This document shows positions 4,300 through 10,955 of a stretch of DNA of 35,964 nt, one piece after another. The first letter of the stretch is position 1. Every line of letters begins with the position of its first letter. The stretch lies in IMG/VR virus record IMGVR_UViG_2541047714_000007; one strand, given 5' to 3'. Under the pieces are notes generated by a model. That model was not told the DNA's origin. It saw only the letters and a program-made list of their open reading frames with translations, and did not search any database. This DNA is from a virus (Duplodnaviria; Heunggongvirae; Uroviricota; Caudoviricetes). Both the position numbers and the translations under genes were made by a program.

Positions 4300-5180
4300 A
4301 CACTCCTCGTCAGTATTCTGGCGGCCATTGCACTTAATCCCGGAGACATGCGGTTGAATGCTGTGCCGGCGGCGTTAAGCTGCCCGGAAACGGTATCCAG
4401 AGCACCTGCAATATTTCTTTTGTCCACACCACTCAGCGCAGACTGTGCCTGCTGTACATACGTGGCTGCTTCGCTGGCTGTTCTGGCCAGACTGATGGCA
4501 TCGGGCATGGATTCAGAGAGTGCGTTAAACGCCGGAACACTTTTCCCCAGAGCCCCGGAGATATTACCCAGTCCGCTCATCAGCCCCGGCACACGGGTCA
4601 GTGCGACAACGGGGTTATCCTTCATTTTCTGTGTCACCCGAACGGCGCTGATAGTGGTCTGGAGTACAGACTGCGCCTGTTTCGCATAGTTGACGCCGTT
4701 GCGGATGAACTGCGCCACCCCTGAAGGTGAAGGAATGGCACCGGAGACCGCCCCGACACCCGGGAGCTTCGTGCGTATTGCCGGTGGTTGCAGAGGATTT
4801 TTCGGGTCACCGGTGTATTCCCGGAGAGACACGGTGGCACTGACAGCCAGCACGTTGCCGGTACTGTCAGTCTGCTCGCTGGTTGCAGTCACATCGGTAA
4901 TCACGAACCAGCCGCGATAGTCACCGTTGCCGAAGACCAGCGCCAGTGCCTGATGGGCTTTCATGGCTGTTCGCAGTCTCGCCAGCTCCACATCGGGTAC
5001 ACAATAATGCTGATGGAAAACCAGAGTTATCTGGATTTCGTCCAGCCTGTCGCCGACGAACTGCAGGCCAGGCTTACCCCCGATGCGGGCATGCTCCGCA
5101 TAATCGACGCCGAACGTGGCCTCGAAGCCGTCCCAGTAGGTAATCAGCTCAAACTCAATATCACCCAGTACGGCAAACAT
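4296..5180 (-). CDS. Tail protein, P2 gpU-like N-terminal domain with C-terminal extension
   Basis: 294 aa; N-terminus MFAVLGDIEFELI...GKPGLQFVGDRLDEIQITLVF resembles my recollection of the gpU / Mu N N-terminal domain. Start overlaps the tape-measure stop. Confidence 0.55.
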   Translation of the reverse strand: MFAVLGDIEFELITYWDGFEATFGVDYAEHARIGGKPGLQFVGDRLDEIQITLVFHQHYCVPDVELARLRTAMKAHQALALVFGNGDYRGWFVITDVTATSEQTDSTGNVLAVSATVSLREYTGDPKNPLQPPAIRTKLPGVGAVSGAIPSPSGVAQFIRNGVNYAKQAQSVLQTTISAVRVTQKMKDNPVVALTRVPGLMSGLGNISGALGKSVPAFNALSESMPDAISLARTASEAATYVQQAQSALSGVDKRNIAGALDTVSGQLNAAGTAFNRMSPGLSAMAARILTRSV

Positions 5181-8131
5181 CAGCGGTACTCCTTACGTTG
5201 TTTCTGAGCCAGCAGACGCTCCAGCATTTTTTCCAGCTCATGCAGGCTCATATTCAGGGCGCCAGTCAGTCCGGCAGGCGCTGTGGTTTCCCTGCCATTG
5301 AGGAAAAACTGAGGATTAAAGCTGACCTGGATACCACCAGACGTTCCACCGCCGGTTGCAGCTGCACCACGGCCTGAATATCCGGCAGCCATGATTTCAG
5401 GCGAGGGGATACGGGGAACATCCGGTGTCATCTCATTTGCCAGACGTTGCCCTGGTAAAATCGATGCCCGGGTGGAGAGCGGGATAGCGGGCATGGAAGA
5501 CAAACTATTGATTACGGCTCCGATCGCATTTTTAGCAGACGACATAAACCCGTTGATATCGGGCAACGGCATACTGAAGCGAACACCTGAAGTGTTATCC
5601 CGTATTTCTGGCCCCTGAATGCTCACGGGCATTCTGGGGAGCAGTTCACTGGCCATTCGCTGCCCGGCCAGAGCTGCAAGCGGAGTGGTCCGCTGCAGGC
5701 CAATGGCGGCCCCCTGCGCGATATTGTCACCAAAGCCCATAAACACGCGGCTCGGCGAATGAATGCCCAGCTTTTCGCTGAACCAGCCACTGATGCTGTC
5801 ACCCATTCCGGTTACACTGGATTTGAGCGACTCCCATTTGTTTTTGATACCGTTAATCAGACCATCGACAAGATGGCCACCGAAGTCGGTAAACTTTGCC
5901 GGCAGATCAACACCAAGATATTTCAGCGCAGCTGCAAAGGCTTTACAGAGCAGACCTGCCGGCGACCAGTTAATCAGCAGCTTACCAGTTCCCGCGATAC
6001 CGCCGTTAAAGGCTTCCTGAATGTCAGCCCAGCGTTGTTCAAACCAGCTACTGATGCTGTCACCCATTCCGGTTACACTGGATTTGAGCGACCCCCATTT
6101 GTTTTTGATACCGTTAATCAGACCGTCGACAAGATGGCCACCGAAGCCGGTGAACTTTGCCGGCAGAGCAACGCCGAAATATTTCAGCGCAGCCGCAAAG
6201 GCTTTATAGAGCAGGCCTGCCGGCGACCAGTTAATCAGCAACTTACCAATTCCCACAATGCCGCCGTTAAAGGCTTCCTGAATGTCAGCCCAGCGCTGTT
6301 TAAACCAGCCACTGACTGCCCCCCAGTTGCGGTAGATAAGGTAAGCTGCTGCCGCGACAGCGGTGATAACGAGACCGATGGGATTCATCATCAGCGCACG
6401 TCCAATCCAGAGAACAGCACGTCCGGCGAGCATAATTCCGCGAACCAGTCCCCCGGAGAGCACGCCACTCAGTGTTCTGGCTCCTCTGGCGACGGCGCTA
6501 AATCCGGTCACCAGCCAGCGGAGCTTACCGCCTTGCCCCAGTGCGAGCGACAGACGAAGCCAGTTGGCCCGAAGTAAAACAGCATTTTTCCAGACACTTA
6601 CAAAGGGGGAAATAAGGAGATTCAGCCCCAGTTTGAGACCAACAGTCGCTATCTTAATCGCAAGGAGCGCACTGATGAGCTTAAAAGCCCCACTGACAAA
6701 TTGCGGGTGAGTCGCTACCCAGTGTTTTGTCCCCTGAATGAGTGGGAGCAGTTCCTGAGTCAGAGAAATAAAAGATGGAGCTAATTGATCGCCCAGCGTA
6801 ATTGCCAGATCGCGACTGCTGACCATAAGTGCTTTAGTGGCTTCAAGGGGAGATTTCAGCCGCTGATCATAAGCACTGGCAAGCAAATCGTTATCCGCAG
6901 CCCTGAGAGCACCGGCGCGGATCTCGCGATATCTGTCCATGTTGGCCAGCATCGGGCGGATAAATGCCATGACCTGCATATCCGCGAACATATCACCCAG
7001 ACCAAAGTTTTTCGCCAGAGCCTGAAGTGCCTCATCTCTTGCCGTATCATTCTTTATTTTCATGGCGGATTTGAAGCCGGCCAGCGCTTCGGGGCTTTTG
7101 GCATTGAGGTAACGTTCTATAACACTCAACATCCCTTCAATCGGAGAGATCCCCGCAGCCTTATAACTCGCAATAGATCCCTGCAAATCAATACCCAGAT
7201 CAGCAAACTGTTTCTGAGTATCGCGGGCAAAAATTTTGGTAAGAAAGTTTTTAAAATTATTGGCTGCCTCGTCGGTGGAACCTGCACCGATTTTTGCTAT
7301 CTGGAGACTGGCCCCGATTTCAGCAACAGCCTCTTTTCCACTGGCAATACCCGCCATCATTGGGGCCAGGGACTGCATCCACTTGACCTGATCCGGGATT
7401 TCAAATGACCCCTGGTCACCGGCATAAGCCATAATATTCTGAACGGCACCAAAATCTCTGGCCGCACCTTTCAGGGAGTTTTGCCAGACTGCGGCCACTT
7501 TTGCCCAGTCCTGAGATGACGTGCGTGTTGCCGTTGCCGCGCGGGCAATATCCGGCATCAGAAAACCGATATCTGACAAGTTATCAATATTGTCGCTGAT
7601 GAGCGAACCCACCGCCTCCTGCAGCTCATCCTGATACTGATTGTATTTAAGCGCCCAGCCTTTTATCTGTCCGGCAAGTGCATCCCGCGTTTTATTGTCA
7701 TATTTTGCGGTGATCGACATATCAATCATTTTGTCCTGAAAAGACATGGACTGCTGAACGGCAGGGGAAACGGTATGATAAACAGTCTGTGCCATGCCAT
7801 ACGCTTCAATCCCCTGACCATACAGCGCCATGCGGTTAGCTTTCAGCGCATCACTGGTAGCGGATGCCGCTGACAGACGGCGCTGCTGGCGCTCAATTTG
7901 CTCCATGGTGCGGCTTACCCGCAGCAGCTCGCTGTTGAGATGCTGCATCCGGGAAGAACCCAGTTGACCATAACGTTCTGTTGCACGGGTTAAAGCGTTC
8001 TGACGTTCCTGCAGGCGGCGTGAGGTATCGCTCAGGGAATCAAGCGCACGGCGGGTACCGCTCATTGCAGAACGGAATGTGCTGCCAATCATCCCGCCGA
8101 TAACAACGCCGACTGAAAACTGTCCCGACAT
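5180..8131 (-). CDS. Tail tape measure protein
   Basis: 983-aa ORF, longest in the window, Ala/Gly/Ser-rich with predicted helical N-terminal part, located between tail chaperone and baseplate genes. GGAGG 8 nt upstream of the ATG at 8131. Contains a two-copy 87-aa tandem repeat. Confidence 0.9.
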   Translation of the reverse strand: MSGQFSVGVVIGGMIGSTFRSAMSGTRRALDSLSDTSRRLQERQNALTRATERYGQLGSSRMQHLNSELLRVSRTMEQIERQQRRLSAASATSDALKANRMALYGQGIEAYGMAQTVYHTVSPAVQQSMSFQDKMIDMSITAKYDNKTRDALAGQIKGWALKYNQYQDELQEAVGSLISDNIDNLSDIGFLMPDIARAATATRTSSQDWAKVAAVWQNSLKGAARDFGAVQNIMAYAGDQGSFEIPDQVKWMQSLAPMMAGIASGKEAVAEIGASLQIAKIGAGSTDEAANNFKNFLTKIFARDTQKQFADLGIDLQGSIASYKAAGISPIEGMLSVIERYLNAKSPEALAGFKSAMKIKNDTARDEALQALAKNFGLGDMFADMQVMAFIRPMLANMDRYREIRAGALRAADNDLLASAYDQRLKSPLEATKALMVSSRDLAITLGDQLAPSFISLTQELLPLIQGTKHWVATHPQFVSGAFKLISALLAIKIATVGLKLGLNLLISPFVSVWKNAVLLRANWLRLSLALGQGGKLRWLVTGFSAVARGARTLSGVLSGGLVRGIMLAGRAVLWIGRALMMNPIGLVITAVAAAAYLIYRNWGAVSGWFKQRWADIQEAFNGGIVGIGKLLINWSPAGLLYKAFAAALKYFGVALPAKFTGFGGHLVDGLINGIKNKWGSLKSSVTGMGDSISSWFEQRWADIQEAFNGGIAGTGKLLINWSPAGLLCKAFAAALKYLGVDLPAKFTDFGGHLVDGLINGIKNKWESLKSSVTGMGDSISGWFSEKLGIHSPSRVFMGFGDNIAQGAAIGLQRTTPLAALAGQRMASELLPRMPVSIQGPEIRDNTSGVRFSMPLPDINGFMSSAKNAIGAVINSLSSMPAIPLSTRASILPGQRLANEMTPDVPRIPSPEIMAAGYSGRGAAATGGGTSGGIQVSFNPQFFLNGRETTAPAGLTGALNMSLHELEKMLERLLAQKQRKEYR
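5768..6315. repeat. Tandem in-frame duplication (2 x 261 bp plus a short partial third unit) inside the tape measure gene
   Basis: Protein copies GWFKQRWADIQEAFNGGIVGIGKLLINWSPAGLLYKAF... and SWFEQRWADIQEAFNGGIAGTGKLLINWSPAGLLCKAF... are near-identical. On DNA, the unit starting near 5768 repeats at 6029 (period 261 bp). The plus-strand shadow ORFs 5763..6020 and 6021..6209 also have near-identical translations. Confidence 0.9.
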
Positions 8132-8206
8132 AGTGGTTAACCTCCGGGGAAGGTGAAAAGACGTGAGGGGATAACGCAGAACAGCCGCTACTGGCGGCTG
8201 TCTGTA

Positions 8207-8464
8207 CTATGATTTGTCGCCGTACTCGCTTTTGATTTGCTCTTCAGCCTGCTCCAGCCACATCTCCAGATCGTCAGTATCGAGGGCATCAATCTCCCCC
8301 GGCTGAAACCGGAACCATCTCGCCAGCAGCCCCTGCGCCTGCGTCAGCGCCCTGGTTGCTCTCACCCATCCCCGTGATGAGCTGAAATCGTTTCTGTAAC
8401 TGCAGGTAATCAGCCAGATCCATATTGTCGAGATCTTCCGGGAGAAGACCAGTACTGCGGGCAA
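8207..8464 (-). CDS. Putative frameshift extension of the tail assembly chaperone (E'-like)
   Basis: Open frame overlapping the 3' part of the chaperone gene and ending 76 bp before the tape-measure start. It has no ATG (nominal TTG start). It lies in the +1 frame relative to the chaperone (codon first bases at 8464-3k versus 8624-3k). Confidence 0.4.
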   Translation of the reverse strand: MPAVLVFSRKISTIWIWLITCSYRNDFSSSRGWVRATRALTQAQGLLARWFRFQPGEIDALDTDDLEMWLEQAEEQIKSEYGDKS

Positions 8465-8624
8465 TCAGCGGTTCGTCCCAGTCTGCCGGGTTTTTGCTGA
8501 TTTTGCGCACCTGCTTCAGGTCTTTTACCGTCAGGCGTTTCAATTCAACCTGCTCAATTCTGGTGCCGGCAGCAGTGGTGAAGGGATAAGACAATTTAAA
8601 AGTATCGGACTGGGTCTGTGACAT
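8289..8624 (-). CDS. Tail assembly chaperone (gpE/G-like)
   Basis: 111-aa acidic ORF between the tube and tape measure genes; AGGAG 7 nt upstream of the ATG at 8624; overlapped by a second ORF in another frame, as expected for tail chaperones. Confidence 0.65.
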   Translation of the reverse strand: MSQTQSDTFKLSYPFTTAAGTRIEQVELKRLTVKDLKQVRKISKNPADWDEPLIARSTGLLPEDLDNMDLADYLQLQKRFQLITGMGESNQGADAGAGAAGEMVPVSAGGD

Positions 8625-8700: not shown

Positions 8701-8716
8701 AGGGGCCGGAGCCCCT
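8701..8716 (-). terminator. Putative intrinsic terminator/attenuator between the tube region and the tail chaperone
   Basis: On the minus strand, hairpin AGGGGC-tccg-GCCCCT is followed by TTCTTCTTAATCTCCTTTAATAT. Confidence 0.35.
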
Positions 8717-9006: not shown

Positions 9007-9528
9007 TCAGCCCCCGATATTGATGCGGTAGTCGGTCAGTTGATCAACGCCACCAACGCGGAAGATGTTGGCCAGATAGTCCAGCTCCAGCAACTCTTCA
9101 CCATCCAGTACCTGCTTGATGTACGTGCAGGTGAAGCTACTGGAGAATTCGGCGTTCTCATGCTGTTTGAACGTCCCCAGCGGGTTCTTCTTGAACATGA
9201 TCGTCAGGAAGGTGACCAGCGGGATTTCGTCAATCAGCCCCTGCGAGCTGTAGCGCTGGACGCTTGAGCGACACTGCAGCGCCAGCGACTTGTACGGGTT
9301 CGCGGCAGACAGCATCGCGTCGCGGTAAAAGCTGTTCCACTTGATCTCGCCCTCAAGCTTGTCGAAGCCTGCCGGGAGTTCCACCTTGCCCACCATCCCC
9401 AGCGCCTTATGCTCCTGCATGGTCATGGAGACGTCCGGGAGTTTGACCTCCTCGGCACGCCCCAGCAGGTTAGCACCATCCAGGTAGATGTTGGCATTCG
9501 TGATGCGGTTGATCTCAATCTTTGCCAT
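9007..9528 (-). CDS. Tail tube protein
   Basis: 173-aa ORF immediately downstream of the sheath gene (stop/start overlap at 9528), the canonical sheath-tube order. Confidence 0.8.
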   Translation of the reverse strand: MAKIEINRITNANIYLDGANLLGRAEEVKLPDVSMTMQEHKALGMVGKVELPAGFDKLEGEIKWNSFYRDAMLSAANPYKSLALQCRSSVQRYSSQGLIDEIPLVTFLTIMFKKNPLGTFKQHENAEFSSSFTCTYIKQVLDGEELLELDYLANIFRVGGVDQLTDYRINIGG

Positions 9529-10955
9529 CAGCTATTCCCCTTCAGGGTTAACAGATATTCCGAGGTGATCTCGGTCTCAAACGTCAGCCGCTCCAGCGAC
9601 GGTGGCGGCGTGTATTTGTAGCTCAGCAACAGGTGACCTGCGGCAAGCTCCGTCTCTTCATTACGGGCCGGATCAAACCAGCAGCTGAAGCCCAGCAGCG
9701 CACCGTCGCCAATCAGTTTGCGACCATAGGCGTTGACCGACTCCGTCAGTGCATCAATCAGCGCCTGAGTAATCGGCATGTCGATGTACTGCTGGCTGAA
9801 GTAACGAATGGACTCATTGATCACATCACCGGTGCGACGAACGTTCTCAAAGTTACGCATATGGGTGACCGTTGGCCATGCTGCCGTCCGGTTACCCCAC
9901 AGACGAAGGCCGCTGCCGTAACTGCTGAATACCGTGGTGATCCCCTGTTCGTTGAGCAGGTTCACCTCGCTCTGCGGGTCGTCAATCATTGCTGACAGTT
10001 GGCGCTCCACACCAGTGATACCCAGAATCTCCTGGTTGGAGGACGACCACCAGTAACCCTTGTCCATGTCGACCCTGGCACGCAGACCTGCAGCACGCTG
10101 GCTCAGCGGCTCCAGCCGTTCGCTGTTGGTGACCGCGTCGTACACCTTGACGTGCGGGTAGCACAGACGGACGCGGTCGGAGCTGGTGTTGAAGTTAATG
10201 GTGCCTTCCGGGCCACGCCCCGCCAGAGCCTGAGCAAAAGTGGTACCAATCGGCGCGTCGATGTAAGTCACCGCGCCCAGCTTCTCAGCCATGGCGATAA
10301 GCTCAACCGAGACGCTGTTCTGGGTGCAGAATACCGGGGCAATCAGGATTTTTGCGAAGTAACCAAACAGGTTGAAGCTGTCGTTAAGCAGCTTCATACC
10401 GGTACGGTTGCCCGCCGCGTTAACGGCACCGATGATATCAGCCGGGGTGACTTTAGTTGGATCAGCATAGTTATAGCTGGCCTTCACCGTTGCATCTGCC
10501 GCGATGCTCTTACCGAGGTTGGTAATCGCCCCGGTCTGTGCATCAAGCGAGTAGTCCTGACCTTCCACATAAGGCTGGCCATCGTTGTCCGGTTTCAGTA
10601 CCAGCTGCGCGACCACCGGATTAGCCAGCTGTGCCTTGCCCGTCGCCTTGTCGAACGCTACATCTTCATCGGCCACAGCGGTTTTATGCACAGCCGGATC
10701 AAGCACGTTAATGACCAGAACGGTGCCTGCACCATGGTCATAAATCGCATCCAGCGCCTGCGGAATGGTAAAGCCGGTGAGCTGGTTGCCAAACGCAGCA
10801 GCATCTTTCTCAGACAGGCACTGCACCAGCGTATTGACGTCCCCCATCGGGGCGGTACCAATCAGGCCAATAACGGCAGATTTCACCGTTTTAACCGGGC
10901 GGGCTCCGTTTTCCACCTCAATGGTTTCGACGCCATGCAGATAGTTAGCTGCCAT
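9528..10955 (-). CDS. Contractile tail sheath protein
   Basis: 475-aa ORF, size and position typical of sheath; followed by tube, chaperone and tape measure. Confidence 0.85.
   Translation of the reverse strand: MAANYLHGVETIEVENGARPVKTVKSAVIGLIGTAPMGDVNTLVQCLSEKDAAAFGNQLTGFTIPQALDAIYDHGAGTVLVINVLDPAVHKTAVADEDVAFDKATGKAQLANPVVAQLVLKPDNDGQPYVEGQDYSLDAQTGAITNLGKSIAADATVKASYNYADPTKVTPADIIGAVNAAGNRTGMKLLNDSFNLFGYFAKILIAPVFCTQNSVSVELIAMAEKLGAVTYIDAPIGTTFAQALAGRGPEGTINFNTSSDRVRLCYPHVKVYDAVTNSERLEPLSQRAAGLRARVDMDKGYWWSSSNQEILGITGVERQLSAMIDDPQSEVNLLNEQGITTVFSSYGSGLRLWGNRTAAWPTVTHMRNFENVRRTGDVINESIRYFSQQYIDMPITQALIDALTESVNAYGRKLIGDGALLGFSCWFDPARNEETELAAGHLLLSYKYTPPPSLERLTFETEITSEYLLTLKGNS

Follow-up and report, generated by a model that had tools for sequence, protein, structure and literature searches.

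Programmed frameshifting in tail chaperone genes is a textbook case of recoding, and its direction is known to vary. The DNA analyzed here, a stretch of 35,964 nucleotides from the IMG/VR virus record IMGVR_UViG_2541047714_000007 (the window), carries a tail chaperone gene that is overlapped by a second open reading frame in a different frame. The question raised by this locus is whether ribosomes pass from the first frame into the second and, if they do, at which codon and in which direction. A preliminary description had read the two frames as a chaperone pair of the G/GT or E/E+E' type, had assigned the second frame to +1, had concluded that a fused product would need a +1 or -2 shift, and had seen no canonical heptamer in the overlap. 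These readings were borne out by the analysis that follows. The shift site, which the preliminary description had left unlocated, is placed by comparative data 96 nt upstream of the stop codon of the short form. We put at roughly three in four the probability that the gene would yield both a 111-aa short form and a 138-aa fusion by means of a +1 slip in the ribosomal P site at CGA_UUU_C.

Escherichia phage PhiKM (genus Bcepmuvirus) matches the window region at 97% identity, and Klebsiella phage KP12 and BcepMu are further relatives. The window is a BcepMu-like prophage, and this prophage is present in 641 of 5426 complete E. coli genomes (~12%). Its minus strand carries a P2/BcepMu-type tail module, within which the chaperone gene lies between the tail tube gene and the tape measure gene, with one small open reading frame intervening (Table 1). 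The tail tube protein is the presumed partner of the E' extension. The small open reading frame, which separates the tube gene from the chaperone gene, has a counterpart in PhiKM, KP12, and E. coli R9, and is missing from the corresponding position in BcepMu and P2.

Table 1. Features of the tail module and of the chaperone locus (positions are those of the window)
Feature	Position	Strand	Basis or remark
Tail sheath protein	9528..10955	-	PF04984 + PF17482
Tail tube protein (P2 FII-like)	9007..9528	-	PF04985, E 1e-54
Small conserved ORF, 93 aa	8723..9004	-	phrog_1239, E 1e-46
Tail assembly chaperone, short form, 111 aa, frame 0	8289..8624	-	PF10109 Phage_TAC_7, 78.7 bits
Proposed +1 shift site CGA_UUU_C	8384..8390	-	CGA 8390-8388, E site; UUU 8387-8385, P site (Phe80); C 8384
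+1-frame ORF as first listed, TTG to stop	8207..8464	-	mechanical ORF call
+1-frame extension, 58 codons (8383-8210) and TAG stop (8209-8207)	8207..8383	-	pN/pS, phrog_8286
E'-like core of the extension, fusion aa 100-132, LARWFRFQPGEIDALDTDDLEMWLEQAEEQIKS	8228..8326	-	PF06528 Phage_P2_GpE
G5 run GCC_GGG_GGA, three codons before the frame-0 stop	8296..8300	-	rival slip site; considered as the conserved one and rejected
Tape measure protein, 983 aa, client of the chaperone	5180..8131	-	PF10145 PhageMin_Tail, E 5e-20

Several other features of the module were recorded. A terminator-like GC hairpin, AGGGGC-UCCG-GCCCCU followed by UUCUUCUUAA, lies on the minus strand at 8701-8716, between the small open reading frame and the chaperone start. 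It could lower expression of the chaperone and tape measure relative to that of the sheath and tube; the scan that found it returned 2 terminator-like sites where 1.1 were expected, which makes the hairpin weak evidence. A 7-bp GC-rich inverted repeat, CAGCCGC-tact-GGCGGCTG, lies at 8182-8200, between the stop of the +1 frame and the tape measure start, and has no T tract. Within the tape measure gene (window 5781-6315, minus strand) there is a 261-bp tandem duplication in 2.0 copies of 92% identity, in frame and amounting to ~87 aa per copy, which would lengthen the tape measure and hence perhaps the tail. The PhiKM record reports a sequencing gap within its tape measure gene, and we would guess that the gap is linked to this repeat.

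The chaperone open reading frame runs from an ATG at 8624 to a TGA at 8291-8289. Its product matched the Pfam family "tail assembly chaperone E/41/14" well above the cutoff of 25 bits, over amino acids 8 to 81; this conserved domain is followed by a variable low-complexity tail of amino acids 82 to 111. The position of the frame-0 stop shifts between homologues, giving short forms of 90 aa or of 102 to 111 aa. We recomputed the frames by three-frame translation from the ATG at 8624. The offset, (8624 - 8464) mod 3 = 1, puts the second open reading frame in the +1 frame, which is the same as -2, in agreement with the arithmetic of the preliminary description and with the shift that it had said a fusion would need. 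The +1 frame is open from a stop at 8467-8465 to the stop at 8209-8207 and ends 75 nt before the tape measure ATG at 8131. The TTG at 8464 is simply the first start-like codon past a stop; it is not conserved, and it lacks a Shine-Dalgarno-like sequence. The part of the listed frame from 8464 to 8384 is probably not translated in the +1 frame, and the remainder, the extension proper, would be translated only after a shift, giving a predicted fusion of 138 aa encoded by join(8624..8385, 8383..8210). The overlap contains no X_XXY_YYZ heptamer phased to frame 0; the gene has a single such heptamer, A_AAC_CCG (mRNA nt 132), and it precedes the overlap.

The extension matched phrog_8286 at an E value of 2.7e-34. 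Against the P2 GpE family, the window's fusion scored an E value of 0.0018 and 18.2 bits, under the cutoff of 23, and 9 of 17 homologous fusions matched this family at an E value of ≤0.01, the best at 1.2e-6. A profile of the predicted fusions aligned to P2 E+E' with an hhalign probability of 88% and an E value of 3.1e-6 (columns 5-128 versus 3-135), and within this alignment the E'-like core was aligned to P2 E'. Judged by these profile comparisons, the +1-frame extension and the E' part of P2 E+E' are homologous. The assignment of the locus to the G/GT or E/E+E' type is thus carried by the family of the short form, by its position between tube and tape measure, and by the alignment to P2 E+E'. 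A PDB sequence search with the predicted fusion gave no match, nor did a search of NCBIfam.

We gathered 146 homologous loci from Enterobacterales, Burkholderiales, and Pseudomonas and assigned the frame of the extension in each by HMM. The preliminary description had named conservation of the downstream frame as a point on which its reading could fail. The extension was in the +1 frame in 139 of the 146 loci, across Gamma- and Betaproteobacteria, the homologues being phylogenetically related and their counts not independent events. The exceptions were two loci of Pasteurellaceae whose extension is in the -1 frame (one of them, L089, has a canonical A_AAG_GGA heptamer), four loci with indel-fused frames, and one broken gene. 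In L104 (Apirhabdus apintestini) and L099 (Erwinia tracheiphila), a single continuous frame covers both the chaperone and the E' part, and in L104 it already reads GAT_TTC across the site; these are either natural fusions or the result of pseudogene or assembly indels.

We then computed pN/pS over 79 unique ungapped sequences. Frame 0 gave a ratio of 0.35 upstream of codon 80, where the other frames gave 1.07 or more. Over +45 to +177 nt, the ratio was 0.30 for the +1 frame, while frame 0 gave 1.82 and the -1 frame 1.58. The +1-frame extension is under purifying selection; with its retention in 139 of the 146 loci, this makes the arrangement more than a product of chance. The linker just after the site was weakly constrained in both frames (pN/pS of 0.78 and 0.66), so the selection data alone place the shift only within ~15 codons. 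Past the TTT of codon 80, the codon position that varies most ceases, within ~0-45 nt, to be the third of frame 0 and becomes the third of the +1 frame, with the switch setting in at about +15 to +45 nt.

Stop codons narrow this interval. Among the homologues, the upstream open limit of the +1 frame ranges from -8 to -260 nt relative to the TTT, the shortest lead, only 8 nt before the Phe80 codon, being that of the Ralstonia, Pandoraea, Undibacterium, and Verminephrobacter loci. At the other end, frame 0 stops 30 nt past the TTT in Pseudomonas phage Bise and 33 nt past it in an E. coli variant (L021/L022). Taken together, the stop codons of different homologues confine the shift to ~13 codons around TTT_C. 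The E. coli variant is an allele with CAG changed to TAG at chaperone codon 91 (L021, L022, P0014), the 90-aa product of which is on record in 914 contigs; in the alignment, read by eye, the change is synonymous in the +1 frame. That this allele is common suggests that the last 21 residues of the short form are dispensable.

Within the permitted span of ~13 codons, TTT_C comprises the only invariant nucleotides, with an entropy of zero at the TTT and at the C. The Phe80 codon is TTT in 95 of 95 unique sequences, and the base after it is C in 100 of 100, though the residue encoded there varies among Q, H, L, and R. Of 14 conserved residues with degenerate codons, Phe80 is the sole one encoded by a single codon, the other 13 using 2 to 6 codons each. 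In the window's own chaperone gene, TTT_Y occurs once in frame 0, at Phe80. TTT_C also persists in high-GC phages in which TTC dominates; BcepMu gp39, gp40, and gp44 together use TTT 5 times and TTC 33 times. These and the arginine codon counts were taken from selected or annotated genes, because counts from all long open reading frames in high-GC loci are contaminated by spurious ones. The codon before the TTT is CGA in 85 of 100 sequences and CGG in one. CGA accounts for 5 of 148 arginine codons in seven genes of the window prophage and for 2 of 95 at the conserved Arg30. The BcepMu group has UCC, GCC, or UCU followed by UUU_CGC/U at the site, and Pseudomonas phage Bise has GCA_UUU_CAA. The A-site codon is CAG in 72 of 100, with CGC, CAA, CTG, and others in the rest; CAG is not a rare codon in E. 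coli. The comparison across homologues that the preliminary description had proposed as a way of finding a conserved shift site has thus yielded a candidate, CGA_UUU_C. By this comparison, the shift likely occurs at Phe80, 31 codons (96 nt) ahead of the stop of the short form.

We also looked around the site for elements that might stimulate a shift. No conserved RNA structure was found downstream of it (the RNAalifold consensus was -5 kcal/mol, with negligible covariation, and single-sequence folds were inconsistent), and no Shine-Dalgarno-like stimulator was visible upstream when the sequence was read by eye. In some folds, CGAUUUC formed a 7-nt pairing with GAGAUUG/GAAAUCG, which encodes E-I-D ~85 nt downstream; we judged this a coding coincidence. 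The GGG_G of GCA_GGG_GCU (mRNA 292-295) was tried as a +1 site and rejected, its fourth base being variable (GGGC, GGGT, or GGGA) through changes that are synonymous in the +1 frame. Single-ORF database proteins of 138 aa were considered as markers of the junction. Their junctions fall at differing indel sites and several have further frame errors; they are most likely assembly errors or mutants and uninformative. The G5 run near the frame-0 stop is prone to indels in public assemblies (L076, L082, P0003-P0005, P0007); one-G deletions there, which are sequencing errors or real mutants, join frame 0 to the end of the +1 frame.

The same G5 run could itself be the site of the shift, as in phage Mu. 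The extension of Mu gp41 occupies the same relative frame, gp41 carries the sequence CGG_GGG_CGA, and a -2 shift is documented for it (PMC5009743, PMC3498833). In the window, the run stands three codons ahead of the frame-0 stop in GCC_GGG_GGA_GAU_UGA (8300-8296), where tRNA-Gly might slip -2 from GGA to GGG or +1 from GGG to GGG, and database proteins with a one-G deletion at the run read ...VSAGEIDALD. A slip here would join the full short form to just the last ~28 residues (EIDALD...). We regard this as improbable for the conserved event. In most homologues the frame-0 stop (GTT_TAG) lies upstream of the run, so that the run cannot be their site, and distant homologues have CCGAGTGAG in its place. 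Moreover, 50 nt or more ahead of the run, the +1 frame is already under purifying selection (QAQGLLARWFRFQP), its GGN/GCN changes being synonymous; well upstream of the run, variation in the +1 frame is confined to synonymous changes, such as CAG_GGN_CUG and GCN_CAG. In the window itself, the G5 run might all the same allow an additional, minor slip, separately from the conserved event. Nor need the frame change be ribosomal or take place at one homologous position: it could come about by transcriptional slippage or at sites that differ by lineage. Related phages do differ in their shift sites (-1 in P2, -2 in Mu, and A_AAG_GGA in the -1 frame in Pasteurella phage AFS-2018a), and CGA_UUU_C is a proposed site with a proposed mechanism. 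We consider such a route unlikely, given that the permitted span has no homopolymer long enough for polymerase slippage, with runs of at most 3-4 nt, and that the stop-codon bounds from separate lineages converge on one span of ~13 codons holding the invariant TTT_C.

A fusion would not be needed at all if the +1 frame were a separate small gene with its own start codon. Gene callers do list the extension alone, as phrog_8286 (function unknown) and as BcepMu gp42, and the TTG at 8464 is available as a start in the window. However, there is no positionally conserved start codon; an ATG, GTG, or TTG behind a Shine-Dalgarno-like motif was present in only 11 of 100 unique loci, and 5 loci are without any start codon before the E' core. 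The homologous segment of P2, according to the annotation of its record, is expressed solely as a fusion. We find a separate gene very unlikely for these reasons. We give less credence still to the idea that the downstream frame is a decaying relic and that the short product alone is made. The annotation does cover the short CDS only, but the pN/pS of the +1 frame equals that of the chaperone domain itself, and the frame is open in 139 loci across two classes of Proteobacteria, Gamma- and Betaproteobacteria.

Under the reading that we favor, a +1 slip at CGA_UUU_C, most ribosomes would stay in frame 0 and produce the 111-aa short chaperone. In a minority, the tRNA-Phe (anticodon GAA) paired with the UUU of codon 80 in the P site would slip one base forward onto UUC; AGC would be read next, and translation would continue in the +1 frame to the TAG at 8209-8207. 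The predicted fusion is MSQ...LQLQKRF followed by SSSRGWVRATRALTQAQGLLARWFRFQPGEIDALDTDDLEMWLEQAEEQIKSEYGDKS, 138 aa in all, and a +1 slip at UUU_C should leave the junction peptide ...LQLQKRFSSSRGW... in it. The fusion would consist of the chaperone domain, a short linker, and a helical tail resembling E'. If lambda gpG/gpGT and P2 E/E+E' are a guide, the tape measure protein would be coated by both forms, and the tail of the minor form would recruit the tail tube protein; the assembly function assigned to the two forms here is thus borrowed from lambda and P2. The frame relationship, the homology of both halves, the selection on the +1 frame, and the nucleotide invariance of UUU_C are direct observations; that the shift is ribosomal and goes in the +1 direction is what we infer, together with its efficiency, the role of CGA in the E site, and the function in assembly. 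On direction, the triplet two bases back is GAU, so re-pairing after a -2 shift at the UUU site is not plausible.

UUU_Ynn has a particular tendency toward +1 shifting in bacteria, even where no stop codon is present, as in argI and YopN-TyeA (PMC5009743). In influenza PA-X, UCC_UUU_CGU shifts at ~1% with no stimulator and with an effect of the E-site codon (PMC3498833). With no downstream structure, no Shine-Dalgarno-like element, and a common CAG in the A site, which would cause no "hungry codon" pause, a low efficiency is expected at the site described here, and it may be only ~1%. We would expect a low efficiency to suit a chaperone pair that is needed at a skewed ratio. The ratio of the lambda tail chaperones is ~30:1 (PMC5009743), and the tail chaperone shift of phage Mu is a -2 shift (PMC5009743) with an efficiency of ~2.2% (PMC3498833). 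The conserved CGA, a rare codon, may pair weakly in the E site.

We found no joined CDS at this locus in the PGAP annotation of E. coli genomes or in the phage records inspected; in E. coli genomes, PGAP annotates just the short "phage tail assembly protein." The frameshift arrangement of tail chaperone genes is already known, as is the UUU_Y slip. The preliminary description had called a +1 frame unusual, which is fair, but it is not unprecedented, since -1, -2, and +1 tail chaperone shifts are all on record (PMC5009743; PMC10885494) and the SEA-PHAGES training set includes 350 "forward" cases (PMC10885494). What appears to be undocumented, in the literature searched (Xu et al. 2004 and Summer et al. 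2004 excepted) and the records inspected, is the +1 use of CGA_UUU_C in the BcepMu-like family, the location of the site 31 codons before the stop of the short form, and its match to the P2 T_TTT_TTG boundary. The locus would add a large and easily tested family, the BcepMu-like prophages of E. coli, Salmonella, Pectobacterium, Burkholderia, Ralstonia, and Pseudomonas, in which the long form is absent from all annotation inspected. The site is distant from the stop codon, outside the region that annotators and heptamer-based tools inspect. Conceptually the gain is modest, the practical consequence being improved annotation. The locus is also a natural setting in E. coli in which +1 slippage at UUU_C without a stimulator, and the effect of the E-site codon, could be studied.

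One known counterpart is the same locus in the type phage of the genus, BcepMu (AY539836), whose depositors already suspected ribosomal slippage. In their record, gp42 is named the "G" protein, and its slipped C terminus is identified with gp43 (L003, 2708-3469). Our comparison indicates instead that the chaperone is gp41, with gp42 as its E'-like extension in the +1 frame, and gp43, which lies in the gp41 frame past the gp41 stop, looks like a spurious open frame in high-GC DNA. The BcepMu record thus appears to misassign the long form.

The likeness to lambda gpG/gpGT is one of arrangement: in both, two forms share an N terminus, the frameshift-extended form is the minor one, and the gene lies just upstream of the tape measure gene (PMC5009743), whereas lambda uses a -1 shift on a canonical heptamer. 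P2 gpE/gpE+E' is closer. Its gene also lies between the tube and tape measure genes, its N-terminal domain is homologous (PF10109), and its shift occurs on Phe codons at the matching domain boundary, with Phe80 no more than 2 residues from P2's T_TTT_TTG. P2, however, makes a -1 slip on that heptamer near the end of E, whereas the window has its extension in the +1 frame, with UUU_C as the candidate site and a short form that continues for 31 codons beyond it. Mu gp41 is the "41" in the title of PF10109, and its extension is in the same relative frame, +1 being equal to -2. The only visible candidate in Mu is a G run, CGG_GGG_CGA, toward the end of gp41; the G run of the window, in contrast, is unconserved and lies downstream of sequence that is already selected in the +1 frame.

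With E. coli argI, Yersinia YopN-TyeA, and influenza PA-X, the window shares a zero-frame UUU followed by a pyrimidine and the lack of an obvious RNA stimulator (PMC5009743, PMC3498833). It differs from them in that the genes are unrelated and in having a common CAG in the A site and a conserved rare CGA in the E site; the slowly decoded A-site codon of UUU_Y slippage is not seen here, CAG being the commonest. The PA-X motif, UCC_UUU_CGU, is closely resembled by the UCC_UUU_CGC of the BcepMu relatives. A more ambitious proposal, which we hold to have an even chance of being right, is that CGA_UUU_C (UCC/GCC_UUU_CGC in BcepMu) is a dedicated, stimulator-free +1 cassette at the Phe-codon domain boundary at which P2 has its -1 site T_TTT_TTG, that CGA, a rare E-site codon weakly paired through an I:A wobble, tunes its efficiency, and that the family has switched the direction of its shift among -1, -2, and +1 while keeping the fusion. 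If so, the cassette would be a bacterial counterpart of the influenza PA-X motif, active in a prophage of ~12% of complete E. coli genomes.
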